A DNA stretch of 52,090 nt from a virus (Duplodnaviria > Caudoviricetes). The stretch is taken from positions 1-52,090 of IMG/VR virus record IMGVR_UViG_3300025697_000033; one strand, 5' to 3'. How positions within the stretch are numbered: position 1 is the first letter of the stretch; each line of letters opens with the position of its first letter. Of the stretch, positions 1 through 52,090 are shown piece by piece. A model generated the notes under the pieces. That model was not told where the DNA came from and made no database searches. It saw only the letters and a list, made by a program, of their open reading frames with translations. The position numbers and the translations under genes were made by a program.

Positions 1-126
1 GCCAATTGTCCATTGTGCATAATTAGCGGCGCGATGCCTTTCACTTGGAACGTCTTTTGTTTCAACATGTCATTTCTCCTTGTATTGCCTAACCTATCCG
101 TAAACCGCACAATGCGGAATATACCC

Positions 127-476
127 TTGCCTCGCCCCGCCACGCCATGCCCCGCCTAGCCTCGCCCCGCCACGCCGCGCCAGGCCTTGAGAAAAGTCTT
201 TGTTGCATCCTTGCCTCGCCTTGCCTTGCCCTGCCCAGCCGCGCCTCGCCGCGCCTTGCCAAGCCACGCCTTGAGAAAGTCTTTGTTGTATCCATGCCTT
301 GCCTTGCCTCTCCAGTCCTGGCCGTGCCTCGCCTATCCGAGCCTCGCCACGCCAAGCCTTGCCTTGCCCCTCCAGGCCAAGCCTTGAGAAAGTCTTTGTT
401 GTATCCATGCCTCGCCCGTCCATGCCAGGCCGCGCCTTGCCATGCCTCTCCGCGCCCATCCACGCCGTGCCTCGCC
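127..476 (-). repeat. Phased GG(C/A)-NN pentamer array, 4 units (12,12,18,14 pentamers); putative guide-RNA array, allele A
   Basis: Plus strand parses as NN-(g/t)cc without register breaks. Linkers GAGAAA(A)GTCTTTGTTG(T/C)ATCC at 189-210, 273-293 and 386-406. Confidence 0.9.
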
Positions 477-477
477 A

Positions 478-579
478 TAAAAAAGCCCCAACTACGCAGA
501 GACCGGCGAAGGAATGCGCAATTAGGGCTAAACAGGATCGCTCCTGTAAAAACTCGCTATGTGATTTCGCCGATCTCAT
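478..579 (-). ncRNA. Structured leader RNA (5' strand, GCGA hairpin, terminator-like hairpin with complementary loop)
   Basis: 15-bp stem 484-498/515-529 with G-U pairs valid only on the minus strand, followed by a U-tract. The loop pairs over 12 bp with 566-577. Small hairpin ACAGGA-GCGA-UCCUGU at 532-547. Confidence 0.65.
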
Positions 580-585
580 ATTCAA

Positions 586-614
586 ACTATACTAGAAAAA
601 CCTTTGGATGTCAA
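586..614 (-). promoter_or_regulatory. sigma70-type promoter for the array/RAMP operon
   Basis: TTGACA (614-609), 17 bp spacer, TATAGT (591-586). Confidence 0.85.
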
Positions 615-2184: not shown

Positions 2185-3237
2185 CTATCTTACTAAATAT
2201 GTTTCGCCGTCGAACCCTGCCTTGAGGGGATAGCGCTCTGCGGCGTCTGATATTCGCACCCCCGCAAACGAATATCTATAGGTCGCTGATAGGCTTCTCA
2301 ATATCAAGCCATGATCATCTGATAATAGAGAATATGGGCCTTCCTCCGGTAACGTCGTCTCCCATCCACCGAACAAAAACAACCCCGGATTTGTCATGGT
2401 TGATGTCTCGCCGATCCTCCACTGCACTTCAGATGCCACATACAATGCGCTGTCATAAAAGGTCCACGCAAGAAACCGCCTTTGCGTAACACTAAACCCC
2501 GTAAGAAGCGGCTGCACCGCGCTTCTTGTGTTTCTGTAGGGTATCGACGGATGCCCTGGCGATGTAGTGACGACACCAATTCCAGGAGTCTGATATCCCG
2601 GAATCGTTAAACCGCCAAACCCGCCTACCACAGAATGGCTTCTGTTAAACCAATATCCATCATTCGCTATTGGTGACCATATATATTGCTCACCCGTTCC
2701 CCACCGAATGCCTTCAGGGGATGAACGATTTGCAGTGAACGCATACACCAAGTCTCTGCCTAAAAACTGGGCGGAACCAGCAGCAAGCCCAAAAGACCCA
2801 AAACGCGCAAAGTTGACATTTAAAACGGAGAATACAATTGATCCTGATTCATCCAATTCAATATATCTAGCATAAGTATCACCCCAAGGAGAAATGCAAA
2901 TCATGCAACCGCCATCGGGAGAAGCCACTACGCTGGATACTGTGTCGCGTGTGACAGCCACCCCGGGATTTATATAAACCGTCCATAAAAGAGAACCCGC
3001 CATGCTGAATTTGCGGACCGTCGCCGATATCAATGTCACATTGCTTAGAACGAAAATATAATCATCAACAGAATAGTACCATACGCCCTCATCTGCATCT
3101 ATGCTCAGAATCAACGTTATAGAACAATCTACCTCAAGCCTATAAAGCCCACGGCCCGATCTGTTAGCACCAAAAGCCTGCACCTTGCTTCTTATTAGTC
3201 CTTGGTTTCTGCCTTTGTTTAGTGACTGGATGCTCAT
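2185..3237 (-). CDS. Hypothetical tail-region protein, possible beta-propeller/receptor-binding
   Basis: About 350 aa, beta-rich, visibly more AT-rich than its neighbours, directly after the large tail protein. Confidence 0.45.
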   Translation of the reverse strand: MSIQSLNKGRNQGLIRSKVQAFGANRSGRGLYRLEVDCSITLILSIDADEGVWYYSVDDYIFVLSNVTLISATVRKFSMAGSLLWTVYINPGVAVTRDTVSSVVASPDGGCMICISPWGDTYARYIELDESGSIVFSVLNVNFARFGSFGLAAGSAQFLGRDLVYAFTANRSSPEGIRWGTGEQYIWSPIANDGYWFNRSHSVVGGFGGLTIPGYQTPGIGVVTTSPGHPSIPYRNTRSAVQPLLTGFSVTQRRFLAWTFYDSALYVASEVQWRIGETSTMTNPGLFLFGGWETTLPEEGPYSLLSDDHGLILRSLSATYRYSFAGVRISDAAERYPLKAGFDGETYLVR

Positions 3238-3239
3238 GG

Positions 3240-6200
3240 TTATACCGCCGCCCATCCTCGGGCCTCTTGCGTGATTTCAACCCACGGCACATTCGGGAAA
3301 TCTGTGAGTCGCCGCGTAACAGCAAGCCTGTCGCCAATATAATATCCTGGCGTGATGACCTGATCCTCCGTCACCCCATCAAGCACCGCATCACGATGGC
3401 GGAGCGTGGTCGATGTGTATTCCACCGAATCGCCGTTTTCAAAAACCCGCGCCACTCCATTGTATGAGTCTATCCATATTCCAAGAGACGGTGCCACATT
3501 CATCACGATTCCGGTTGCCTGCTCAAGCTCAACGTCATACCTAACGCACTCCAAGTATTGCGTCTGGATGCCTGTAACAATCGCGTACTCGATGCCGCGC
3601 TCCCACCAGTCACCGTTCCAAAACTCAAAGCCGTTTTCCGTGATTCGCGTGCTCCCCGTTGCTGGCACGTCCGGGTCAGTTGGGTCATCCGGGTCATTCA
3701 GCGTCACGCCGCCCTCGCCGGTGTTATAGATGCTGGTGATGTCGCCCGGCTGGCTGCGATTTATAAGCGCCTCAATGATGTCTTCCATGGTTCCGCGCCG
3801 ATTGTCCAATTCCATTTCGATTGGCAACGGATTCCCGCCGATGTCATACCGCACCTTGAGCACCTGCACCTCCGTGTCTACGTCTTGATCCGCGTCGAGC
3901 ACTTGCACTACTTGGCCCTTGTACAGCCCGTTGAATCCTAGATCCCATGCCGTGTTGGTGCCTGTCAAATCGACGGCGATTGTCGTGCCGGTGCGCCCCG
4001 GTACGTCGTTCGCCAGCATGCTCAAATCAAGCGTGTTCAATCGATACGAGATAAACGGGTCTTTGAACTCTTCAAGCGCCCGCAGAACGGCGGCCTCCAG
4101 TATGTCGGGGTCGGTGATTTGGGAGTCGGTCAAGATGAATTCGCGGATGCCATAGGCCGCAACGCTCGTATCATCCTGAATGTAACCAGTTGCATATCCA
4201 GCGTCCACCAAAGAGAGCCGCTTTTCAGGGATGTCGCCCTCGCCGAATCCATGGATCCGGTTTGCAAGCTCACTACGATCCTCTCGCGCCTCAAGCCCCA
4301 CAAGCCGCTCCCCGGCTGCGATTGCATCCGGCCCGCCGATAACCTCAATCTTGCGCCGCCAATTGAATTTGTTTTCCGCGTCCACCCACCAGACGCCCGC
4401 GTTTTCCTTGCCGATGGATTTCTGCATCTGCCTAATCACGGCGAGTATGTTCGTGTCCACCAGCTTCACGTCCGCAACCTGAGCCTCGATTTGCGGGTCA
4501 ATAATGCCAATTGAAACAGGCCGCTCATGGACTTGATCGGCTATGATTTCTTCCAAGACGCTTTGAACCGTGCCGGATGTTTCAATAAACGGGATAACCT
4601 CCCGCCCCATTTGCACAACCGCGTTGGCCGCGTAAACGTCAATGAAGAAAGCATCGCCCTCATTTGACCGCATGGGCTGTTCAACCGTGAATGCTCCAAG
4701 CGCAAGCCCCCAGCGGTCCCTCAGAACCAGCCGCGCATTGGGGTCCATGAGCGCCTCTGTTTGCGAAGCGTCTTTGGTGGGATCAGCGGTGACTCGAAAC
4801 TGAATATCACTCGCCTCATTCACGCGGTCGGTGAAGGTGCCATTATCCACTTGATTGATTTCCGCCATGAGTCCGTCAGTGCCGTATACCTCAATCTTGT
4901 AGAGCAGAACATCGCTTTCCTGGTAGGTTGTGGAGGTCGGCGGAACGCCGTCGAAGTCGGTCCCAAACACAACGCCATCGCTCGTTGTGGTGGTGATCGA
5001 AAGATCGTCGTTGAACGTCAGCGGCGTGGTGATGGTGTAGCTGCCCTCTTCGCCCGAGATGGTCCAGGTCGAAAGGCCCGCTGAATCAAACGCCGTTTGC
5101 ACCGTCGCCACGGAAGCATTATCCAAGAATTCCACACTGTAAAGCGTCCGATCAATTCGGATGCTCAGCGTCACCGTGTCGCCGCTTTCGTCGGTGGTCA
5201 ACGTATAGATCCGCGTTTTGGGCGTGGTGCCGCTGGGCGCGGACGGATCTCGCTGCCATGGCTCCCGATTCCAAAACTCTGTGGTATTCTGCACGCCGTT
5301 GGTGCCGTCGCCGTGAATGCCGCCGCCGATAATAATGCCGCCGCCCGCCACGCCGGGAGAGGATACCCCCACACTTGGAAGGTGCATGCCAATCCGCGCC
5401 GTGCCGACAAAGCCCGACATGTCGAGGACCGCGTCGGCGACGTACCCCACCGTGATTTGCCGCTCTTCACCCGCGCTAAGCTCAACGAAAATAGGCTCAG
5501 GCGTTCTGTAGCCGGCCACCGGCAGGAACGTCACCCAATACTCTCCCGCGTCGAGCGTGATCGCCTCACCGGAATCGCGCCACGCCTCATTGGCTACTTG
5601 CCACGCTGAACCCGATGGGCCGGAAATCAAGACGTTCAAGCCCACTTCCGCCGCCGTGTAGGTGATGGTTTCCGAAAGTAGATCGCCCGCTGGAACCGTC
5701 ACGAATTTGGAGGCGGGTTCGATCCATCCTGATTGTGGTTTCGCGGAAAGGGAGTATTGCGCGGCCAGCACAGTGATGGTTTCGCCTGAATCCGTGAAGG
5801 GCGCCGCGCCGGTCAATGTGTAGCCGCCGCCCGCGATTGCGCCAGCCGGGGCGATGGTGCCCTTGAATTGTCCATTGATAGGCGTGTAGGTTCCGGTGAC
5901 TTCGGTATCCACGCCGTCCGTCAAATTGGTGTCGAAGTCTTCCGGTGCGTCATAGGTCGAAAGATTGCTTGAGAATGCGATGGTGTATGGGTTCGCAGAA
6001 ACAGGCAATGCCACCGTCGCGCCGGATGCCCTCGGTGTGACTCCCGCGTCAACGCTCCATGTTTCTCCCGTCACAGCCGCCGCCGGGGAAAGCGTCACTG
6101 TCAGATTGCCATTGCCCGCTGCAAGAGGCACCCAGATCGCGGTATGCGTCACGGTGGTATCGCTTGACACCTCCACGTTTTCGCCCGTGGGGGTCGTAAA

Positions 6201-21283: not shown

Positions 21284-22534
21284 TCAATCGCAAACCATCG
21301 GCTGTGGAGACCGTTGGTGCAATTCCAATATTGCGTACACAAACCAGTCGAGCCTGTTCGGGCTTGCGCCGTAGCCCTCGTAGTTGCAAAGCTCATCTTC
21401 AAGTTCGGGAAACACGCCGACATGATGTATCCGGTGCTGCTCTGACAGCGTGGCCACCGGCTCAGCGCGAACAAGTTTGCCTCGGCTGGCGTGAATACCT
21501 CTACATGGTACGGTAGCATCTGCCGTTTTAATTGTCAATCTCACCATTTCGCCGCCCTGGTTTGTTTCGTAGACCATCGCGTCCGCTTTGTGCTTGTGGT
21601 ATAGCGCACACGCCGCCCGCGCCCAGGTCAACGGGGAGCCTTGAAGCGAGTCGTCATCCAGCACATAGTAGTCGCCATCCACGCCTTTGCCTGCCGCGCC
21701 TATGCCCGCCTCGTCGCCCTCCGTGGTGCAGGACGGGTCTATCGCAACCACGATGCGCACAAGCTCGGGCAACTTGTCTTTGGTGATGCGGTCCCGGTCA
21801 ATCTGACTCCGCTTCCAGAGCGCGGTGTCTGAATCCTCCAGATACTTGCCCTCCAGAAACCGCATGCGCTTGCGCCGTGGCAGGCTGCCGAGCCGGTTCT
21901 CGATGTAGCCCTCGGGCAGGTTCTCCGCGTTGTGGATTGGGTTCATCAGCATGCAATCATACATAGCCCGGTCAAGCGGCGTGTTCGTCTCGGGGTCGAT
22001 GTGTTTGATAAACATCGCATAGGACCAGTGTTTTTTCGTGCTCGGGTTGCAGTCGAAGAAGGCGCGGAGTTTCAGCCCGCAGTTTTGTGCAAGCCGGGTC
22101 AGGGCGGTAGTCATGGAATCGTAGGAGATCTCGGTGCATTCATTAAAATGCATCGAGACGTATTCCTTGCCGAGGATCTTGTCGGCGCGATCCTTGTCGT
22201 CCAGGCCGCCGATCCAAAGCTCGGAGCCATTGGCGAAAGATACGAACCAATCTGACTTATTGATCGTGTAGGGAACCCTCGGGAATGCAAGCGCCATCAT
22301 TTTGGGAAGCGTGTCGAAGGCAACTGCTTGCTTGGCCGCGCTGAACGTCTTGCGCAGAACGACATGCCGGGAACCCGGCGCCTTGAGCGCCCTATACACC
22401 ATGAGCCACAGGATGATGAACGTCTTGCCGCTGCGAGAGCCGCCGTAAAGCAGGATGTTCTCAGCTTGCGCCTTGGCCACGTCCACCGCGTCCTGCTGGC
22501 GAGTTGTGCGCTTATAGGGCATTTGTAGACTCAA
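21284..22534 (-). CDS. terL: Terminase large subunit
   Basis: Walker A YGGSRSGKT, HFNEC Walker B, DCNP motif, nuclease VVAIDP and SPNRLD. Confidence 0.95.
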   Translation of the reverse strand: MSLQMPYKRTTRQQDAVDVAKAQAENILLYGGSRSGKTFIILWLMVYRALKAPGSRHVVLRKTFSAAKQAVAFDTLPKMMALAFPRVPYTINKSDWFVSFANGSELWIGGLDDKDRADKILGKEYVSMHFNECTEISYDSMTTALTRLAQNCGLKLRAFFDCNPSTKKHWSYAMFIKHIDPETNTPLDRAMYDCMLMNPIHNAENLPEGYIENRLGSLPRRKRMRFLEGKYLEDSDTALWKRSQIDRDRITKDKLPELVRIVVAIDPSCTTEGDEAGIGAAGKGVDGDYYVLDDDSLQGSPLTWARAACALYHKHKADAMVYETNQGGEMVRLTIKTADATVPCRGIHASRGKLVRAEPVATLSEQHRIHHVGVFPELEDELCNYEGYGASPNRLDWFVYAILELHQRSPQPMVCD

Positions 22535-24104: not shown

Positions 24105-24500
24105 TTAGATGTCATCGTGATCCGGGTCTTTCCACACGACGGTTTGCGTGGCGTCAATCTTCGCGGGCGCGTCGAGGCCCATCACCTTGGAGCGGCGCTC
24201 CATGATGCGCACCACGGTATTAGCCGCTTGAGAGTCCCCGCCCTTAGCCCTTGCCCATTGGCCCAGCAACAGCCCATCCAGGCGCTCCAACTCCATCTCT
24301 CGCACGTCTTCAATGGTTTGCTCCATGTCTTTGCGCATCTTGCCGAGGTTCTTGGTGATGCACTCATATGCGTATTGCGGGCTGAATCCAAGCGCCGCGC
24401 CTATCTGCTTGTAGGTCGCGCCCGCCTTGCGCATCTCGAAAGCCTTGTGCGCTTTCTCTGCCGCCTTCACGTTGCGCGGCTGCGTCTTTGACTTAGCCAT
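24105..24500 (-). CDS. terS: Terminase small subunit (HTH type)
   Basis: AFEMRKAGATYKQIGAALG HTH; ELERLD and ERRSKVMGLDAP motifs. Confidence 0.8.
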   Translation of the reverse strand: MAKSKTQPRNVKAAEKAHKAFEMRKAGATYKQIGAALGFSPQYAYECITKNLGKMRKDMEQTIEDVREMELERLDGLLLGQWARAKGGDSQAANTVVRIMERRSKVMGLDAPAKIDATQTVVWKDPDHDDI

Positions 24501-24672
24501 GGGGGGGCTCCTTTCGCCAGCTTGTCCGTTGCGCATACCTTATTCCCTTTGTCCGCAAAAGCTGTTCCACTCTTTTTCTTGCTGCATCATTCCCTTCCCT
24601 CATTCTCGAGGTAAAACACCTTATCAGCATCCATGGAATTCCGAATAGCGCTGCTATGACTAAAATATCCAT
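24493..24672 (-). CDS. Inserted small membrane protein (59 aa)
   Basis: MDILVIAALFGIPWMLIRCF...EPPHG; GGAGA RBS; flanked by an 18-bp direct repeat. Confidence 0.55.
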   Translation of the reverse strand: MDILVIAALFGIPWMLIRCFTSRMREGNDAARKRVEQLLRTKGIRYAQRTSWRKEPPHG

Positions 24673-24694: not shown

Positions 24695-25951
24695 TTAGCC
24701 ATGAGCGGCCTCCAATACCGGGGTGCCTTTAGTTGCATCCGCCCACCGCTGCAAAGTCACCGCGACATAGCCGGGATCAATCTCGATACCCCTGCACTTG
24801 CGCCCAAGGCGCTCACAGGCGATGAGCGTGGTGCCGCTGCCGATGTATATGTCAGCCACCACGTCACCCGCCTTACTGTTGTTTAGTAGCGCATTCTCCA
24901 CCAATTCAACAGGCTTCATGGTTGGGTGCTGCTTTGCTGCCCGAGGCCTGTCAATCTCCCACACGCTGGTCTTGTGCTGTCCTTTGCCATAATAGTGATG
25001 CTTTTTGCACCAAGTGAGCAGAATGGGTTCATGTTGATAATCGTAGTCGAGCCGCCCCATAGAAAACGTGGGTTGGTTTTTCTTCCAAATAAGCACATGT
25101 CTGACTGTTAGGCCCGCTTCTTGCATCATCATCATCATCATGCCAAGGTCGCCGCCCTGCGGGGCCGTGGTAAAATAGGTGCATTCGGGAGATGCTGCCA
25201 TGCGCAGGTTCTGGAATGCAGGCACCAACATCTCTTTGAGCTTGGCTGGCGATAAAGCATCATCCTTGATGTCTGTTAAACACCTTCCAGAAGGCTGGAA
25301 AGTGTTTAACATTCTATTCTTCGCGCCTATATCCACCCCATACGGAGGGTCTGTAAATACCATCAGCGGCTTGTCCTTGCTCATCACCCGCGCCATGTCC
25401 TCCTGTTTCGCGCTGTCCCCACATAGCAGCCGATGCTCCCCGAGCGTCCAAAGTTGCCCTTTTTTCGTCTTCCACTTCTTTTGAAGCTCATCGGCGATGG
25501 TTATTTGCGGCTCCGCGTCCTCGCACGTCGGCTCAAGCCCATCCAGCACGCCCGCTTCTTCCGCCAGCCCCTCCAGCATTTCCTGCACCGCCGCGCTTCC
25601 GCTGTTCACGTCCTGCAACAAAGCGCCCAGCATTTCCGCGTCCGCCTCGGCTAAAGCACCTAATGGGTCAACCGTCGCCAGCAGGTATTCCGCTTCTTTT
25701 TCGGTGACATCCAGCACCAACGCGGGGATCTCCATATCCGGCGTGGTCTCTGCCCGTAGGTGCCCGTCGATGAGCATGTAGCCTTTGCGTGTCTTGCGCA
25801 CCAGCACGGCCCCGGCGAAGCCTATCTCGCTGAGCACGCCTCTAAGCGCGTCCTGTTGCGCCTGGGGATGCTTTCGCCAGTTCTTTGGGTGCGGTATAAG
25901 CTCCCCGGCCTTGACGCGCTTGAATTCCTTTACGCGGTCTTTGATCTTCAT
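24695..25951 (-). CDS. ParB-like N-domain plus N6/N4 DNA methyltransferase
   Basis: HPKNWRKH and LIDGHLR; LLCGDS, FTDPPYG, HPTMKPVEL, D.YIGSGTT motifs. Confidence 0.92.
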   Translation of the reverse strand: MKIKDRVKEFKRVKAGELIPHPKNWRKHPQAQQDALRGVLSEIGFAGAVLVRKTRKGYMLIDGHLRAETTPDMEIPALVLDVTEKEAEYLLATVDPLGALAEADAEMLGALLQDVNSGSAAVQEMLEGLAEEAGVLDGLEPTCEDAEPQITIADELQKKWKTKKGQLWTLGEHRLLCGDSAKQEDMARVMSKDKPLMVFTDPPYGVDIGAKNRMLNTFQPSGRCLTDIKDDALSPAKLKEMLVPAFQNLRMAASPECTYFTTAPQGGDLGMMMMMMQEAGLTVRHVLIWKKNQPTFSMGRLDYDYQHEPILLTWCKKHHYYGKGQHKTSVWEIDRPRAAKQHPTMKPVELVENALLNNSKAGDVVADIYIGSGTTLIACERLGRKCRGIEIDPGYVAVTLQRWADATKGTPVLEAAHG

Positions 25952-26451
25952 GCACACCCCCTCGAGAATTCGATAGCGCCCGTGCTTAGCGCATACGTCG
26001 CCGCATTCCGCGCATGTGGGCAAACTGTTTCTCGGACTATTAGGCGCAAGATGTCGCCTCGAAACTTATCCTCAAGGCTGTGTGCCGCCTCTGGGTCGTC
26101 GGCCACTGCGGATATGCCCTTCAATTGCTTTTGCGCCCATTCTTTCACGCCTACTTGTCGCCTAAGCATATCCATAACACCAAGCAGCCTGAACGCTTCC
26201 TTGTCGAGCCAGTATTGCGCCGCCCGCTTCGCCTCTTCCTCAGAATCGTAGTAAGGCCACTTCCCGACTAGATTGTCGCCGCATTCAGAACAGTACTCGC
26301 GCTTAAGACGGCATTCCACCGTCCATTTGTGCCCCCTCGGAATCACCAGAACACTGTCGATCAGCTTTGAGCCTTTCACCTCCGCGCTGATTTGAACCAA
26401 TAGCGAATGCCCTTCACGCTCTCTGATTTCATCTTTCCAGGTTAGCTTCAT
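25948..26451 (-). CDS. Hypothetical protein
   Basis: ATGA-coupled to methyltransferase; contains CSECG. Confidence 0.55.
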   Translation of the reverse strand: MKLTWKDEIREREGHSLLVQISAEVKGSKLIDSVLVIPRGHKWTVECRLKREYCSECGDNLVGKWPYYDSEEEAKRAAQYWLDKEAFRLLGVMDMLRRQVGVKEWAQKQLKGISAVADDPEAAHSLEDKFRGDILRLIVRETVCPHARNAATYALSTGAIEFSRGCA

Positions 26452-38879: not shown

Positions 38880-39724
38880 GTCACCACCCCCGCGTCTTTG
38901 CGGACAGGGGTAAACCGTCGCGGGTGCTTATGCGTGCAGGTGCCCATTAGCCCAATGTTGTTGCAGGATTTCTTGGCCCCATAGCAAACATTTTCGGTGC
39001 CAAAACCACACGAACCACCTTCCACCTCGCACACCACGCCGTCCGGCATTTCCACGATCTCGCCGACTGCATATTCGTGATTCGGTACCAGCTTCTGGGG
39101 CGGTGGTTCAAGTCCCTGCTCAGGGAATCCGCCATGAGCGGGCCGCCGCTGGCCGCTGTGGGCCGATGGAAGGGGCGGGTCTGGCACGATCTCAAAGGAG
39201 GCATCCACTTCTTCGCCTTCTTCGGCGGGCGGGGAGAGGGTGGCGATACGTTCCCAGTCGTGGCATTTGCCGGGGTAGCGGATCGAATCGCACGCGCCTT
39301 CCACGACTCTGTAAATAGTTCCTTCTGCGTCATCCATCAGTACTACCGTTCCTACTGGTGGATGTTCTTGATCCTCATACGCTACCACCGGCTCTCCCGT
39401 CAGGTGAGTAGCGAGAGCGAGGCGGTTTATTTGCAGGTTTACATCGTGCTTGTCAGCCGTAGCCGCGTGTTCTTCGGCCCATTCCCTCTCGGCTTCTATC
39501 CAGCCTTCCTGCAACTTGATGTCTTTGCGGATTATTTCCTCCTGATTCGCGTGGCGCTTGTCGTGGTGGGCGGCGCGGGCTTTGTTTACCGTTCGCGCCT
39601 TCGCGTTGTAGACGTCCAGAATTTTGCGCAACCCTGAGCCATTAAAGCTCTCCCATATCGCCTGCCGCAGCGGGTCTTTTGACTTCCTTAGCGAGTTTAG
39701 TGTCAATTCTTTCCGCTTCTTCAT
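38876..39724 (-). CDS. Hypothetical protein
   Basis: GGAGG RBS; 282 aa. Confidence 0.6.
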   Translation of the reverse strand: MKKRKELTLNSLRKSKDPLRQAIWESFNGSGLRKILDVYNAKARTVNKARAAHHDKRHANQEEIIRKDIKLQEGWIEAEREWAEEHAATADKHDVNLQINRLALATHLTGEPVVAYEDQEHPPVGTVVLMDDAEGTIYRVVEGACDSIRYPGKCHDWERIATLSPPAEEGEEVDASFEIVPDPPLPSAHSGQRRPAHGGFPEQGLEPPPQKLVPNHEYAVGEIVEMPDGVVCEVEGGSCGFGTENVCYGAKKSCNNIGLMGTCTHKHPRRFTPVRKDAGVVT

Positions 39725-44151: not shown

Positions 44152-44197
44152 TAAACTAAAATTGAAAGTTGAGAGATGGCAACCAAGGAGAGACACG

Positions 44198-45268
44198 ATG
44201 GACATCATGGAACAAATCAGGGCAGAGCGAAGAGAAGAAAACGCGAAGCTCAAGCCCATAGTAGAATCGACCATACTTGAAGTGCTTGCAGACTTTGCGG
44301 CCCTGAACCGTCCAATGCCAACCACGGCCACACTGATCGCTGATTGCCTCATCGATCACAGGATTGGGCGCGAATATCTCAGAACGAAAAAGGAAATGGT
44401 AGCGTTGACTTCTGGTGCCTTGAAGCGGTTGCAGAAAAAGGGCAAAGTGCAAAAGCTGCAAGGCATTGGATTGACAGGAAAGATCGCCTATGTGTGGGAG
44501 GTTAAGCCAGTGACAAAAACCGCGTATTCTGGAATGTATAACGCTATCTTTTTGCTGAGAAAAAATGAACCCAAAGATGGTTATTATGGCGGATTCTCGG
44601 GCGGAAAAGATTCTTGTGTGATCAAACACCTTGCGAAGCGTGCAGGCGTTCAAGTGGAATGGCATTATCACATGAGTATAGACCCTCCGGAATTGGTGCT
44701 CTTTGTGCGTGAAAAGCATCCCGATGTTATTGTTGACCGGCCAGAAATGCAAATATTCAAAGAGGTGGAGAAGCGCGGTATGCCATGGGTAAAAGCGCGG
44801 TGGTGTTGCTCTATTATTAAGGAACGGCACGGCAAAGGCTACACCAAGATCCTTGGAGTCAGAAAAGAAGAGTCACCCCGCCGCATGCGGACATGGGACG
44901 AAGTTACGGGCGATGTGGTTGCTCCGATTTGCCTGTGGTCAACAGACGACGTATGGGAATACATTCGAATGAGTAACGTTCCGTATTGCGCTCTTTACGA
45001 TGAAGGGTTCGAGCGTTTGGGGTGTGTGGGTTGTCCGTTGGCAGGCAAGAGAAAAAGGGATAAAGAGTTCAAGCGCTGGCCGAAATTTGAGGCAGCATGG
45101 AGAGCAGCATGTAAGCGCCTATGGGACGCTCCCGGAGACTGGGCACACAAAAAGCGCCACGACACGGAGCAAGAATATTGGGAATGGTGGCGCTACGAGG
45201 CCAGAAGCACCGACCAGAAAAAAGTAATCCCTTGCGGCGACGTACCTATGGAAAACGTGCAATCATAA
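44198..45268 (+). CDS. PAPS-reductase-family (PP-loop, Fe-S) protein with extra N-terminal wHTH-like region
   Basis: FSGGKDS, RWCC, LGVRKEES..R, LYDEGFERLGCVGCP. Confidence 0.9.
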   Translation: MDIMEQIRAERREENAKLKPIVESTILEVLADFAALNRPMPTTATLIADCLIDHRIGREYLRTKKEMVALTSGALKRLQKKGKVQKLQGIGLTGKIAYVWEVKPVTKTAYSGMYNAIFLLRKNEPKDGYYGGFSGGKDSCVIKHLAKRAGVQVEWHYHMSIDPPELVLFVREKHPDVIVDRPEMQIFKEVEKRGMPWVKARWCCSIIKERHGKGYTKILGVRKEESPRRMRTWDEVTGDVVAPICLWSTDDVWEYIRMSNVPYCALYDEGFERLGCVGCPLAGKRKRDKEFKRWPKFEAAWRAACKRLWDAPGDWAHKKRHDTEQEYWEWWRYEARSTDQKKVIPCGDVPMENVQS

Positions 45269-46290: not shown

Positions 46291-46755
46291 TTGATTGCTG
46301 GCTTGTGAAACTAGCATTGCCTCGCGGACGGTGATCTCTGGGGTGTTTTGCATGAGGGGTGCCATCATATCTTTGAATTGCTGAAACTCATCCAGCTTCT
46401 TAGAGGCATTTGCCACGTTGTCAATACGGACAACCTCGGCAGAACACACGTCGGCCCACCGCGCATCTTCAAGAAATTTGTAAACGGTATCACCCTCCAG
46501 CCCTTTTACGCAGAGGATGCCGGGGAGATCAAGCCCCGGCAGAGACATCTGCTGGTCAAAGTCCGAAGATGGAGAACGTGAGTTTAGACGGGTGCGAACA
46601 TATGCCGCACACCCGTACTCTTGGAAGTGCTCACCAGCCTCAATCGCCTCGTCAGGATACCATTCGCGGAATCTTTCAACGATGGTAGCCACATGGCTAC
46701 CGCCGCCTTCAAGACACCTATCTATGGCTTTGCTTATTGCTTCTTTCCACTGCAT
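46288..46755 (-). CDS. Hypothetical protein, partner of ParB-like gene
   Basis: MQWKEAISK start overlapping the ParB-like gene end. Confidence 0.6.
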   Translation of the reverse strand: MQWKEAISKAIDRCLEGGGSHVATIVERFREWYPDEAIEAGEHFQEYGCAAYVRTRLNSRSPSSDFDQQMSLPGLDLPGILCVKGLEGDTVYKFLEDARWADVCSAEVVRIDNVANASKKLDEFQQFKDMMAPLMQNTPEITVREAMLVSQASNQ

Positions 46756-47681
46756 TTTTCTATCCTTTCTTTCCATGCTAAAGAGAAATCAAGCACCCAC
46801 TGTAGCTGCTCTTTTATCTCTTGAAACTCTTCAATATCCCAGTCGCTCATTTCTTCCACAACCTCATACGGGTCTGGAAGATCGACAAGCCGTCGAATTG
46901 CAGATCGCACATTAGATGCGCGGCCTCGCCGTTCCCACTCGTCAATGCCCATGGCATCCACCATGGCGTTCCCGGCTTCTTGTAGCCGCTGCACCGATTC
47001 GTTGTGCTCCTTGATCTTCTTCTTCTTCTTTTCGTGTTTCGCTACCTCCTGCCGGGCAACCTTGCCGATCACACCCGGTTCGTTTTTCAGTATGTCCATT
47101 TCTTGCTCTGGGGTCAGGTCGGCTACCTTGGCTGCAACCGAGACGGGGAGGATGCCGTCTTCCACTGCCTGCAACAATTCGGGCGTGCCGTCTTTGATCA
47201 CCTTGCGGGCACGTTTGATGGACCCAGTTGAAACGCCCACGGCATTTGCTGCGTCTTGGATGGAAGTGGATGGATCTTGAGATCCCTCCACTTTTTCATC
47301 TGCATATTGATTGGTCCCGTGCTTCAAATTCGCCACCTTCGCCCCCACCACAGAACATTGGCTCTCGCTCAGATGCCGCCGCTTCAGGTTCAGGCTCACC
47401 ACGAACGCCGCTATGCTCTCTTCGTCGCCATTGTACGTCCTAGCCTCGACACTGCGTCCAAGCTCGGCACAGGCCAACACACGGTGCTTGCCGTCGATAA
47501 CATGCCCATCTCCGTTCACCCACACCGGCTCCCGCTGCCCGTGTTGCCGGATGTCCTCCACCAAGTCGGAAAACTCCGTCTCCGTCATTTTAGGAAACAA
47601 GTCTGCCGCCGGGTGCATGATCGCATCTTCAGCTATTATCCGATTCATTTGTACGCCCCTTCCTTTGTCTTCGAGTTCCAT
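46734..47681 (-). CDS. ParB/Spo0J-like N-domain plus HTH protein
   Basis: HPAADLFP, DIRQHGQREPV, VIDGKHR, SLNLKRRHL, AANAVGVS HTH. Confidence 0.85.
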   Translation of the reverse strand: MELEDKGRGVQMNRIIAEDAIMHPAADLFPKMTETEFSDLVEDIRQHGQREPVWVNGDGHVIDGKHRVLACAELGRSVEARTYNGDEESIAAFVVSLNLKRRHLSESQCSVVGAKVANLKHGTNQYADEKVEGSQDPSTSIQDAANAVGVSTGSIKRARKVIKDGTPELLQAVEDGILPVSVAAKVADLTPEQEMDILKNEPGVIGKVARQEVAKHEKKKKKIKEHNESVQRLQEAGNAMVDAMGIDEWERRGRASNVRSAIRRLVDLPDPYEVVEEMSDWDIEEFQEIKEQLQWVLDFSLAWKERIEKCSGKKQ

Positions 47682-47693
47682 GTTTATCCTTTC

Positions 47694-47790
47694 AAAAGAA
47701 AACCCCGCCCGCGCATGAACCGACAAGAACAAATGCGGGCAGGGAGATCCGGCTTTCGCCAAAAGATTTTATGTTTGGGTGTCGGTCCAT
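47694..47790 (-). ncRNA. Structured leader RNA, same fold as 478-579
   Basis: 10-bp stem CCCUGCCCGC/GCGGGCGGGG plus U-tract; loop UGUCGGUUCAU pairs 11 bp with 5' AUGGACCGACA; GGC-GAAA-GCC hairpin in between. Confidence 0.6.
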
Positions 47791-48250: not shown

Positions 48251-48537
48251 TATCCAACCAACCGAGGCCGATAATCATGGTCAACAGTGCCACCAACGCT
48301 TCAAACAGTCGCATCAACTCTTCTATCATTTTTTCCTGCCTTTCTGGCGTTTTCCGCGCCACTTGAAAGTGTGTCCAATCTTCACGCCACGGCCCAATAG
48401 CCATTTGATGATATTCATCGATACGCCCTCGCCAGCCACCAACGCACCCGAACCGCCGCGTAGATCGCCCATAAAGCAAATAGGTGAAGACCAAGACCAA
48501 AGTCAGTGCAGATCTGGTCGAAGATGCTTTCCTTCAT
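48234..48537 (-). other. Chain of three ATGA-coupled micro-ORFs (48415-48537, 48326-48418, 48234-48329)
   Basis: 40, 30 and 31 aa; each start overlaps the previous stop. Confidence 0.45.
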
Positions 48538-49058
48538 CGGTACGCCCTCGCCAGCCAGCCTTTCAGGAATCGCCCGTACTTGCTCCGGTTTTTCGTCGCC
48601 AACACGCGATAGAATCCGGCCTGCTCAGAACGCATCGCGCAAAAGAGAGAGAGCGCCGTCATACTATTGGCGGCCTCGGCTGTCTTGCGGCCTAGAATGC
48701 CATCCTCGACAAGCGGGAGCCCACACGCCCTGCACGCCCGCTGTAGAATTTTCACGCCTTGGCGGATGCCCATGTTGACCACGCAGTCGAAAGTCTTCTC
48801 AGCTACTGTGGCGTTCGTTAAATTGCAGAGTTTGGCGGGCACCCAGAAGCGGTCGAAATAAAGCTGGATCGCCTGCTCTTCGCTCAAACCCTTGATGTCA
48901 TCCGCGTCGATGTCTCCGTCGCCGTCCACATCGAGACAGGCTTCGCGGATTACAGGAATGGTGATACCATAATTCGTGACCCCCGCGTGATCGGTGGTTA
49001 GTCCGCCTTCGTTTTCCAGGACGGTCCTTATAGCAAGCTCGAAGAATGCGTGTCTCAT
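48534..49058 (-). CDS. Endolysin, glycoside hydrolase family 108 with PG_binding_3-type tail
   Basis: VLENEGG, GVTNYGIT, FDCVVNMG, DGILGRKT, FLKGWLAR; EF-hand-like DVDGDGDIDADD. Confidence 0.93.
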   Translation of the reverse strand: MRHAFFELAIRTVLENEGGLTTDHAGVTNYGITIPVIREACLDVDGDGDIDADDIKGLSEEQAIQLYFDRFWVPAKLCNLTNATVAEKTFDCVVNMGIRQGVKILQRACRACGLPLVEDGILGRKTAEAANSMTALSLFCAMRSEQAGFYRVLATKNRSKYGRFLKGWLARAYR

Positions 49059-49735: not shown

Positions 49736-49812
49736 TGGTAGCGGCGACGGGACTCGAACCCGTGAACTGCTGCGTATGAAACAGCCGAGATGACCATCTT
49801 CTCCACACCGCG
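49736..49812 (-). tRNA. tRNA with CAT anticodon (Met, partly initiator-like)
   Basis: 77-nt cloverleaf CGCGGTG TG GAGA..TCTC G GCTGT TTCATAC GCAGC AGTTC ACGGG TTCGAGT CCCGT CGCCGCT ACCA. Confidence 0.9.
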
Positions 49813-49913
49813 CCAAAACTGATTCAACTTTTCCCTTCCAGAGCGACGGGCCGGGGTTTCATCGACCCGCCGCCAAACGAAGGAGAAACGCCATGAAACG
49901 CTTCCCTTGTAGG

Positions 49914-50444
49914 TTAGCATGAATGGGGCGGGGTGTCAATAGGTGCTGGCGCTTCTTCGGTTCTACCCGCCAATACATTAGGCGTTGTTCGTTGCGCCGC
50001 TATCATCCTCCTGGCGTCATCTTGGCCCGCCTTCGCCCCCATGATAATTTTGCCTTGCTTGAATAGTCGGTGCTGATGCGCCCGGACATCGGGATCGTCG
50101 AGTTGAGATTCGTCCACTCCCATCTGTCGAAAATGCGCCTTCAACATGCCCCGGAATGATGACCTGAATCGGCGATCATTGTATTCGGTGGCCTCTATGT
50201 CCGTCAAGACTTGCAGGCCGTCCTGGTGGATTTTCACGGTGTAGCTTTTGCCAAGATCTTCAAGTCCCAAGCTCATTGCTGCTTGCAGCCCCATCAACGC
50301 AAACTGGTATTGCACGGTTCCGCGCTTTTTGTTCGTGATGGTTTCAATTTCAGAAGCCGGGAACAAATCGCCCTTTTCGATAGACTCATAGTCGAACGGA
50401 ACTCTGCTTGCTATTCCGTCTTGTGTTTCTTCTGTGTCGCTCAT
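49914..50444 (-). CDS. Unknown 176-aa protein directly downstream of the array (candidate accessory of the RAMP system)
   Basis: AGGAG RBS before MSDTEETQ; same strand, 36 bp after the last array unit. Confidence 0.75.
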   Translation of the reverse strand: MSDTEETQDGIASRVPFDYESIEKGDLFPASEIETITNKKRGTVQYQFALMGLQAAMSLGLEDLGKSYTVKIHQDGLQVLTDIEATEYNDRRFRSSFRGMLKAHFRQMGVDESQLDDPDVRAHQHRLFKQGKIIMGAKAGQDDARRMIAAQRTTPNVLAGRTEEAPAPIDTPPHSC

Positions 50445-50480
50445 GTTTTTTCTCCTGTTTTTCCAAACCAAAATATACCC

Positions 50481-51013
50481 TCGCCATGCCTTGCCAGTCC
50501 AGGCCTTGCCTGTCCAGGCCATGCCTCGCCTTGCCCAGCCTCTCCATGCCATGCCCTGAGAAAGTCTTTGTTGTATCCATGCCTTGCCCGTCCCGTCCAT
50601 GCCAGGCCTTGCCTCGCCACGCCTTGCCGCGCCCCGCCGAGCCTTGAGAAAGCCTTTGTTGTATCCATGCCTTGCCAGTCCAGGCCTTGCCTATCCAGGC
50701 CTTGCCTAGCCCTGCCTTGCCCAGCCGTGCCAAGCCTTGAGAAAGTCTTTAATTGCTACCCTTGCCTTGCCTTGCCTTGCCTTGCCTAGCCTCGCCCCTC
50801 CAGGCCAAGCCTTGCCTTGCCCCGCCTCGCCTCGCCACGCCGTGAGAAAGTCTTTGTTGTATCCATGCCTTGCCTATCCCGTCCATGCCTATCCAGGCCT
50901 TGCCGCGCCCCGCCTTGCCTTGCCCCTCCAGGCCTTGAGAAAAGTCTTTGTTGTATCCATGCCTTGCCTTGCCTGTCCCGTCCAGGCCAAGCCACGCCGA
51001 GCCCCGCCACGCC
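50481..51013 (-). repeat. Phased GG(C/A)-NN pentamer array, 6 units (15,13,14,16,14,11 pentamers)
   Basis: Linkers at 50558-50578, 50646-50666, 50739-50761 (degenerate), 50844-50864 and 50937-50958. Confidence 0.9.
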
Positions 51014-51025
51014 ATTAAAAAATCG

Positions 51026-51589
51026 TTACACCACCAAGAACCGCCCAAACTTCGGACGGAAATCACACACGCCCTCATACATCCCCGCCGCCTCAATCGC
51101 CGTCTCAAGTTGCTCCAACTCGATCACTGTATTGTCAAACTGGATGGCAAACTCCGCGCTCCACTCATGGAAGATGGGCCGCGTTCTCACAATCCGCGCC
51201 ATCCCAACCTTAACGAGCCGTTGGTCAACAAAACTCTTATCCGCCCACAGCGCGTCAATACCCTTCGGCCCGCTGTACTTCAGCGCCGCGTCGCCATCAC
51301 AGAAGATCGACGCCTTGAAAGCCTTCCCGAGTTTGCTTTTCTTCGCGCCCGACACCAAACACGCCTCGACATATTCGCTCGGGATGCACGGGTGTCCTTT
51401 GCCGTTAAGCAACAGGCTCCCGTACCATTCTACCTCGGCCATTTGCTCGTAGGTTTCTTCGGTCTTGTTTCGCTTGCCGCTGAGTTTTTTGAGCCGTTGC
51501 GTCCATTCGTTCATCGGGTTCGCCAATTGTCCATTGTGCATAATTAGCGGCGCGATGCCTTTCACTTGGAACGTCTTTTGTTTCAACAT
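51026..51589 (-). CDS. Stand-alone Cas7/RAMP-like RNA-binding protein (187 aa), putative VIPR-type effector
   Basis: AAGGAG RBS; RAMP-like pattern: beta1 FQVKGIAPLIMH, HPCIPSEYVEACL, thumb-like RIVRTRPIF..W, C-terminal G-loop AGMYEGVCDFRPKFGRF; flanked by arrays. Confidence 0.75.
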   Translation of the reverse strand: MLKQKTFQVKGIAPLIMHNGQLANPMNEWTQRLKKLSGKRNKTEETYEQMAEVEWYGSLLLNGKGHPCIPSEYVEACLVSGAKKSKLGKAFKASIFCDGDAALKYSGPKGIDALWADKSFVDQRLVKVGMARIVRTRPIFHEWSAEFAIQFDNTVIELEQLETAIEAAGMYEGVCDFRPKFGRFLVV

Positions 51590-52090
51590 GTCATTTCTCC
51601 TTGTATTGCCTAACCTATCCATAAACCGCACAATGCGGAATATACCCTTGCCCAGCCTCGCCTCTCCCAGCCTTGCCTTGCCACGCCCCGCCTCGCCTTG
51701 CCACGCCGTGAGAAAGTCTTTGTTGTATCCATGCCTTGCCTCGCCTTGCCTTGCCAGGCCGCGCCTCGCCCATCCAGGCCAAGCCATGCCCTGAGAAAGT
51801 CTTTGTTGTATCCATGCCTCGCCTTGCCCTGCCCAGCCGCGCCGCGCCATGCCACGCCAAGCCGCGCCCTGAAAAAGTCTTTGTTGTATCCTTGCCTCGC
51901 CTATCCCGTCCCCGCCTCGCCTCGCCATGCCGATCCATGCCAAGCCGGACCACTCCATGCCGAGCCATAAAAAAGCCCCAACTACGCAGAGACCGGCGAA
52001 GGAATGCGCAATTAGGGCTAAACAGGATCGCTCCTGTAAAAACTCGCTATGTGATTTCGCCGATCTCATATTCAAACTATACTAGAAAAA
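51522..52090. repeat. Terminal redundancy, right copy (allele of 1-600)
   Basis: See left copy; includes the leader copy at about 51968-52069 and the -10 box. Confidence 0.95.
51648..51966 (-). repeat. Phased GG(C/A)-NN pentamer array, 4 units (12,12,11,15 pentamers); allele B
   Basis: Linkers at 51710-51730, 51793-51813 and 51871-51891. Confidence 0.9.

Follow-up and report, generated by a model that had tools for sequence, protein, structure and literature searches.

Identification of a phage-borne VIPR operon

What does a lone gene for a Cas7-like RAMP protein do when it lies between arrays of GG(C/A)-NN pentamers in the genome of a tailed phage? The question is raised by IMG/VR virus record IMGVR_UViG_3300025697_000033, which was analyzed over its whole length of 52,090 bp (the window) and which carries nearly all of its genes on the minus strand. 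We consider it very likely that the locus is a phage-borne Viral Interference Programmable Repeat (VIPR) system, organized as a one-promoter operon and acting as a vrRNA-guided silencer of the DNA of rival elements. Judging by the homology of its Vipr to both type II exemplar groups and by its Vap1-like gene, the system is probably of the type II-like kind represented by Escherichia phage SUSP1 and a Pseudomonas fulva prophage. The VIPR class has already been described in preprints (bioRxiv 10.64898/2026.04.26.720920, 10.64898/2026.04.26.720927 and 10.64898/2026.10.15.759431), and the locus is a further example of it, not a new kind of system.

As two of these preprints present it, VIPR is comprised of a minimal RAMP protein, Vipr, guide RNAs (vrRNAs) in which 9-16 YNNGG repeats are followed by a constant 3' tail, and, in most cases, a single vap gene (10.64898/2026.04.26.720920 and 10.64898/2026.04.26.720927). 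In the same accounts, one Vipr protomer binds each repeat, burying GGY and showing NN, and the resulting filament pairs with double-stranded DNA (dsDNA) in an NN-x-NN-x pattern and silences transcription. On the minus strand of the window, the corresponding operon reads promoter, leader, four vrRNA units, vipr, six further vrRNA units, a vap-like gene, a terminator-like hairpin and a tRNA-Met gene. The upstream array is represented by two versions, A and B, which lie near opposite ends of the record. The elements of the operon, in order of transcription, are as follows.

586..614, minus strand: sigma-70-type promoter of the VIPR operon, TTGACA-17-TATAGT, 11/12 matches
479..585, minus strand: leader of ~105 nt, with two small hairpins followed by a long imperfect hairpin and UUUUUUAU shortly ahead of the first guide unit
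122..476, minus strand: upstream vrRNA array, version A, units A1-A4 (14, 18, 12 and 12 pentamers)
51643..51966, minus strand: upstream vrRNA array, version B, units B1-B4 (15, 11, 12 and 12 pentamers), joined to the complete vipr
51026..51589, minus strand: vipr, 187 aa, a Cas7-like RAMP predicted from homology and a structural model to polymerize on vrRNA
50476..51013, minus strand: downstream vrRNA array C, units C1-C6 (11-16 pentamers each), between vipr and vap
49914..50444, minus strand: vap-like gene, 176 aa, modeled as a small alpha/beta N-domain plus a long helical hairpin
49883..49906, minus strand: terminator-like hairpin just past the vap stop codon, a consensus match only

This arrangement on one strand, with tail genes on one side and the endolysin gene (48534-49058) on the other, is that described in an earlier note on this DNA as four units, a 187-aa gene, six units and a 176-aa gene. 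The promoter and structured leader named there also hold up. The site at 614-586 is the sole promoter-like site in positions 1-1000 (shuffle mean 0.4), and the leader has a minimum free energy of -36.4 kcal/mol (z -3.1), with 2 of 200 shuffles folding equally well. Both genes are real open reading frames (ORFs) with AGGAG ribosome sites, both are called by public gene callers, and the exact 187-aa and 176-aa proteins recur on 10 and 19 public contigs, respectively. A U-run, CGAUUUUUUAAU, stands directly after the vipr stop, ahead of array C.

In agreement with the earlier note, no Cas family or nuclease appears among the PHROG matches of 55 window ORFs. The pentamer arrays are the sole periodic arrays seen in the window, on which no dedicated CRISPR finder was run. 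The note's proposal of VIPR, and its preference for silencing over cutting, are supported by the Vipr homologue, the GGY/NN arrays with their tail, the Vap-like gene and the lack of neighboring cas or nuclease genes.

By homology with the systems studied experimentally in SUSP1 and P. fulva, the operon would work as follows. One promoter would drive the leader, the four vrRNA units, vipr, the six further units and the Vap1-like gene, and each unit would be cut out as an RNA of ~75-115 nt containing 9-16 variable GG(C/A)-NN pentamers, two semi-constant pentamers and a 22-nt tail. Vipr protomers would bind one per pentamer, each burying its GGN and displaying its NN pair, such that NN would constitute a non-contiguous code. 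The filament would then pair with dsDNA by reading NN-x-NN-x, with one base skipped per unit, and would block rather than cut, preventing transcription with the assistance of Vap. The filament would probably be directed at the coding sequences of competing phages, or of satellites or prophages that share the host. This account takes from the SUSP1 and P. fulva experiments how units are processed, how the filament assembles, the one-base-skip rule, silencing, and a role in conflict between mobile elements.

Anatomy of the guide arrays

Arrays were detected as GGNNN pentamers in exact register, with a threshold of at least 5 units, on both strands. The scan of the window returned 14 runs, all on the minus strand and in perfect 5-nt register, and none on the plus strand. 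Fifty dinucleotide-preserving shuffles of the window, likewise scanned on both strands, gave a mean of 0.20 such runs, the longest of 6 units, and at a threshold of at least 4 units only two extra 4-unit runs were added (39168-39187, plus strand; 5386-5405, minus strand). Together the 14 runs contain 189 pentamers, 11-18 per unit, comprised of 161 GGC, 27 GGA and 1 GGT, which reproduces the count and register of the earlier note exactly. GG is kept in 189/189 pentamers and the third base is a pyrimidine in 162/189; fourteen further terminal pentamers (GGATA, GGATG or GGGTA) open the tails and are left out of this total.

Successive units are joined by a constant tail of 22 nt (GGAUACAACAAAGACUUUCUCA), which carries GGATACAACAAAGACTTTCTCA in 9/14 units, a one-base variant of it in one unit and a degenerate copy in another, while in the last unit of each of the three arrays the tail end differs from GGATACAACAAAGACTTTCTCA. 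The constant linker proposed in the earlier note is thus present, but the distance between the final GG of a unit and the opening GG of its successor measures 21-23 nt and not a uniform 21 nt. No stable fold is predicted for the tail, although no search was aimed at pseudoknots. The two pentamers that precede it are semi-constant (GGC-RA and GGC-AW), with NN variability of 1.6 and 1.3 bits compared to 2.3-3.2 bits elsewhere, and when these two are excluded each unit has 9-16 variable NN pairs. The guide units themselves fold no better than shuffles (z -0.7 to -1.0), as expected of a protein-bound single strand.

The choice of third base is linked to the base that follows it. Among the 27 pentamers with C at the fourth position, 11 carry GGA and one carries GGT, compared to 16 with GGA or GGT among the remaining 162. 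CG pairs follow GGA in 6/6 cases and are never found after GGC, a bias for which we have no explanation.

Could the repeats be something other than guides, either by coding for a Gly/Ala/Arg-rich repeat protein or as ordinary satellite DNA located next to a RAMP gene by chance? ORFs of 75-349 aa do cross the arrays, but they are open in several frames and on both strands, as expected of stop-poor, GC-rich DNA, and the 5-nt period shifts the reading frame at each unit, so that no frame encodes a constant repeat. Moreover, the arrays lie on the vipr strand in 77 of 80 related loci, and the homologous SUSP1 and P. fulva arrays yield Vipr-bound RNAs. We therefore give this alternative almost no weight.

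The 187-aa gene is a Vipr homologue

By sequence, the 187-aa gene product is a Vipr protein. A phmmer search against all Protein Data Bank (PDB) chains returned a single match, 36pp_D, annotated 'SUSP1 Vipr protein' (E 1.2e-30), in which residues 6-186 align to 5-187. The homology to the type II VIPR protein of SUSP1 and the P. fulva prophage (PDB 36pp) is thus full length, with ~37% identity. The protein also matches phrog_4652 (E 3.8e-53), and 131 phage records contain genes with 37-40% identity to it, among them records of Felixounavirus, Pseudomonas, Gordonia and Mycobacterium phages; GGY/NN runs are present in 4/4 inspected loci of such Vipr-related phages. Pfam, NCBIfam and PADLOC returned no family for this protein or for the 176-aa protein.

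Conservation extends to residues with assigned functions. The residues that read G1 and G2 in SUSP1 Vipr, namely H17, R138, D177, W178 and R179, correspond to H18, R137, D176, F177 and R178 here, and K33, R39 and K82, which contact DNA, are conserved too. The SUSP1 pocket positions M72, C173 and G176 differ, being occupied by Y73, E171 and C175, respectively.

The earlier note had suggested that a RAMP fold be sought with Foldseek on a predicted structure. An AF2 model of the protein, with a predicted local distance difference test (pLDDT) score of 94.3, gave 81 Foldseek matches at E <= 0.001, with Csm3/Cas7 subunits at the top (E 3.8e-6, probability 1.00, TM ~0.5). By this predicted model, Vipr shares the RRM/RAMP fold with Cas7/Csm3/Cmr4, presumably together with the thumb and the glycine-rich loop. 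Vipr and the CRISPR class 1 backbone also share the principle of one subunit per fixed step of guide RNA, but the step is 5 nt with three bases buried for Vipr and 6 nt with one base flipped for CRISPR class 1, and sequence identity is 9-14%. In contrast to CRISPR class 1 loci, no repeat-spacer array, Cas1, Cas2, Cas5, Cas6, Cas10 or large subunit is seen here.

A divergent Vap1-type accessory

The 176-aa protein is, as predicted from profile comparison, a divergent Vap1-type accessory. In type II systems, Vap1 is a small DNA-binding protein, and such a role is conceivable for this homologue as well. It has 869 homologues of ~150 aa in a representative library and belongs to no PHROG family, and BLAST detects no resemblance between it and the Vap1 genes from four phages. 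The tie to SUSP1-type Vap1 comes only from profile-profile comparison, in which a profile built from 47 homologues of the 176-aa protein (p176) was compared with the four phage Vap1 proteins using hhalign, giving a colinear alignment of 121 columns with 87.7% probability and an E value of 3.4e-6. Its structural model (pLDDT 90.2) found nothing at E <= 0.001 in Foldseek, the weak rows being winged-helix regulators. A wide VIA-align search aligned only the helical hairpin (residues 81-152, Z <= 7.7) and was uninformative.

Related loci and the third base of the triplet

To place the locus among its relatives, we used an IMG/VR profile search that gathered 469 vipr relatives; the locus counts given here refer to the best 80 of these (38-51% identity). 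A same-strand run of GG pentamers adjoins vipr in 77/80 loci, an association that the earlier note had proposed to look for among homologues. Opposite-strand runs number only three, in 2/80 loci. The p176 family adjoins vipr in 38/80 loci and the SUSP1-type Vap1 profile in 14, with either found in 50 and both in 2. A vap gene lies downstream of vipr in 44/80 loci and upstream in 6/80; none is seen in the other 30, many of which are short contigs.

A six-unit array separates vipr and vap in the window, whereas the two genes abut in the SUSP1-like HY02, LESphi2, Medea1 and MakoManhole. The vipr, array, vap order is nonetheless common among the closest relatives: where vap lies downstream (44 loci), an array intervenes in 28 and the genes abut in the other 16. 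The closest Vipr proteins (41-51% identity) come from uncultured IMG/VR phages, for instance L012, L015, L032 and L058, which share with the window the p176-type Vap, the order vipr, array, vap, array and a predominance of GGC triplets. Their tail sequences are unrelated to that of the window, although those of L032 are also short (~16 nt), and no guides are shared; the best NN match of any window guide to related loci is 0.81.

In the window, GGA (14% of triplets) replaces the GGT of SUSP1 and P. fulva VIPR as the minor triplet, and the earlier note had offered this as a variant. It does not set the phage apart, because GGA is common among relatives and because the methods of the discovery paper mention NNNGG-type repeats (10.64898/2026.04.26.720920). 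Among 2346 pentamers of related arrays, the third base is C in 1634, T in 491, A in 199 and G in 22, which puts GGA at 8.5%, and the 14% of IMGVR_UViG_3300025697_000033 ranks 7th of 58 rows. Across these 58 rows, no simple link was found between the use of GGA and the Vipr pocket residues. In one relative, L064 (~2718-3941; Vipr identity 40%), GGA is the main triplet, accounting for 87/102 pentamers (85%), and its sequence makes this locus a candidate for a VIPR that accepts purines.

Two versions of the upstream array

The ends of the record overlap, as expected of the closed circle that the earlier note had assumed, but the overlap is imperfect. Positions 1-121 equal 51522-51642 with 1 mismatch and positions 479-600 equal 51969-52090 with 0 mismatches (122 nt); the flanks therefore differ by 1 mismatch in 243 nt, yet the four-guide sets between them differ. 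Given this imperfect overlap, the three arrays counted in the earlier note most likely amount to two, of which the upstream one is present in a second version. Two further features belong to the overlap.

1..68, minus strand: duplicate of the first 22 vipr codons and the ribosome-binding-site region, within the imperfect end overlap; residues 1-22 are 100% identical
51969..52090, minus strand: second leader copy, identical to 479-600; the record ends between the -35 and -10 boxes

The differences between versions A and B follow the predicted architecture of the guides. In the unit pairs of equal length, A4/B4 and A3/B3, GG differs at 0/52 positions, the third base at 2/26 and NN at 26/52. This confinement of the differences to NN and the third base points to selection on the scaffold. 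Unit lengths also differ between the two versions. The junction of version B with the complete vipr also appears in two public ORF calls, P0152 and P0273, of which P0273 occurs on 5 contigs; version A was not traced in public ORF calls.

We think it likely that the genome is circular or permuted and that the assembly ran around it through an array that is polymorphic, the two copies then representing two versions in the population; the alternative is a true partial tandem duplication at the record ends. If the versions do co-exist in one phage population, guide arrays would be replaced orders of magnitude faster than the sequences that flank them. Such turnover might reflect active renewal of guides, through exchange of cassettes between phages or through rewriting of NN that spares GGN, and would then supply the missing 'adaptation' arm of VIPR, but we regard this as a long shot.

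Guide targets and the case for an active silencer

To search for targets, guides were converted to exact seeds by the published rule, in which each GGY becomes one wildcard. No self-target was found in the window, where the best NN matches of 0.57-0.73 are no better than those of shuffled guides, in accord with what the VIPR preprints report (10.64898/2026.04.26.720920, 10.64898/2026.04.26.720927 and 10.64898/2026.10.15.759431). When the variable NN pairs are compared in composition with codon positions, the best correlation is with positions 1-2 in the sense orientation (r 0.57; the other five combinations of phase and strand give -0.48 to 0.31). Coding targets in which the wobble base is the one skipped, as published, would fit this pattern.

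Several results weigh against the assignment of the locus as an active silencer of rival elements, and some of these come from the target search. Exact seeds of 10-12 NN from guides A1, C4, A2, B1 and C6 gave 0 matches in IMG/VR, and exact seeds of C2 and A4 gave 0 matches in 185,579 GTDB species genomes; guides B2, B3, B4, C1, C3 and A3 were compared only with the gathered loci and genomes. Guide C5, which gave the best lead, matches no more than 21-22 of 26 positions (0.81-0.85). Three features of the operon count on the same side. The leader's long imperfect hairpin plus U-run looks like an intrinsic terminator or attenuator and, lying in the interval between the promoter and the first guide, could end transcription early. 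The tail is short and without a predicted hairpin, unlike the ~40-nt pseudoknotted tail described for the SUSP1 clade in the VIPR preprints. Finally, 14% of the triplets are GGA. The SUSP1 structure paper reports that the Y pocket excludes purines (10.64898/2026.04.26.720927), and the VIPR preprints include GGY>GGA with the constructs that perturb the system; some protomer sites may therefore bind differently here. The leader hairpin with its UUUUUUAU spans 485-530 on the minus strand, between promoter and first guide unit, and its copy lies at 51975-52020.

The C5 lead points to a capsid gene. A match of 21/26 lies in locus L056, in codon phase within a major-head gene (phrog_21712), and was equalled by 1/200 shuffled guides, with 14 guides tested. 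A degenerate pattern that keeps the 21 matched bases found 5 sites in viral sequences, 3 in genomes and 5 in metagenomes, the same record being counted twice in some cases. All sites encode SG[GA]NVDNAIRQ[NK][LVI] and score 21-22/26, with no exact match among them. The other 13 guides score at chance level on five whole phages of this family and the nearest cultured relatives of the window phage are Synechococcus phages, so we regard the C5/capsid match as a weak lead, not a target. The underlying major-head motif, STGSGGNVDNAIRQN, is conserved in L056 and L087 (601-638 in L087) and in L088-L099, matching C5 at 21-22/26. The genes that contain it are carried by uncultured phages and Hyphomicrobiales prophages, and one phage of the family, G001, has its own vipr ~1.4 kb downstream of the capsid gene.

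That no rival-element target was found in the scans would also be expected if the guides were aimed at the host chromosome, to regulate or take over its genes, instead of at rival mobile elements. The seed searches covered IMG/VR and GTDB species genomes, and vrRNAs directing VIPR to host-genome sites are described in one of the preprints (10.64898/2026.10.15.759431). However, natural VIPR targets are satellites and prophages, which make up 18/20 and 48/66 of the predicted targets in the two clades studied (10.64898/2026.04.26.720920), and the two guide seeds that were run against 185,579 species genomes found no match there, although exact seeds are a harsh test. We consider a host-directed function unlikely.

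The missing targets might instead mean that the arrays are remnants or decoys, with guides that have decayed or hold little information and a silencer that is no longer active. AA is the NN pair in 42/189 pentamers, C3 ends with five consecutive GGCAA, and the 27 GGA units may be poor Vipr sites. Set against these points are the intact state of both ORFs, their good ribosome sites, the conserved RNA-binding residues of Vipr and the recurrence of both exact proteins on public contigs. Moreover, GG is kept throughout and array versions differ only at NN and the third base. Decay of the system is accordingly very unlikely in our judgment, and we retain a vrRNA-guided silencer of rival elements as the best account of the locus.

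Genome context

Beyond the VIPR operon, the window encodes a terminase, portal, major head protein, tape measure, DnaB-like helicase, methyltransferase and GH108 endolysin. The large terminase (21284-22534, minus strand) has as its nearest cultured relatives two Synechococcus phages of ~54 kb, at 45% identity, which hints at a cyanobacterial host; the portal protein has no relatives in GTDB species genomes. One structural RNA gene lies next to the operon.

49736-49812, minus strand: tRNA-Met (CAT) gene, directly downstream of the VIPR operon and on the same strand

An Rfam scan of the window gave tRNA only, and there are thus no hammerhead ribozymes between the guide units. A 143-aa protein (24105-24536, minus strand) matches phrog_645, labelled 'Rnase E' (E 8.6e-27), and has no Pfam family; if it is a true RNase, it could bear on vrRNA processing. 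Three other genes stand out, at 24695-26023 (minus strand), 46734-47762 (minus strand) and 44162-45268 (plus strand); their products are a DNA methyltransferase whose N-terminal part is ParB-like, another ParB-like protein, and a protein that has a PAPS-reductase domain.

Discussion

The locus has in common with SUSP1 and P. fulva VIPR its units of 9-16 variable pentamers with a constant 3' tail, its arrays on both sides of vipr and on one strand, a small Vap1-like gene, carriage by a phage, no cas or nuclease gene and no self-targeting. It differs in the number of its guides, 10 (14 with the second version of the upstream array) compared to 4 in SUSP1, and in its 22-nt tail, for which no stable fold is predicted, where the SUSP1 clade has a pseudoknot.

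VIPR is a very recent discovery and has been proposed to be older than CRISPR, with a non-contiguous RNA code for DNA. This locus leaves the picture of VIPR unchanged, and adds to it a clean, compact and guide-rich example from an uncultured phage. With 14% GGA and a divergent Vap, it lends itself to testing the strictness of the "GGY" rule, and guide turnover in nature may be directly visible in the two versions of the upstream array.

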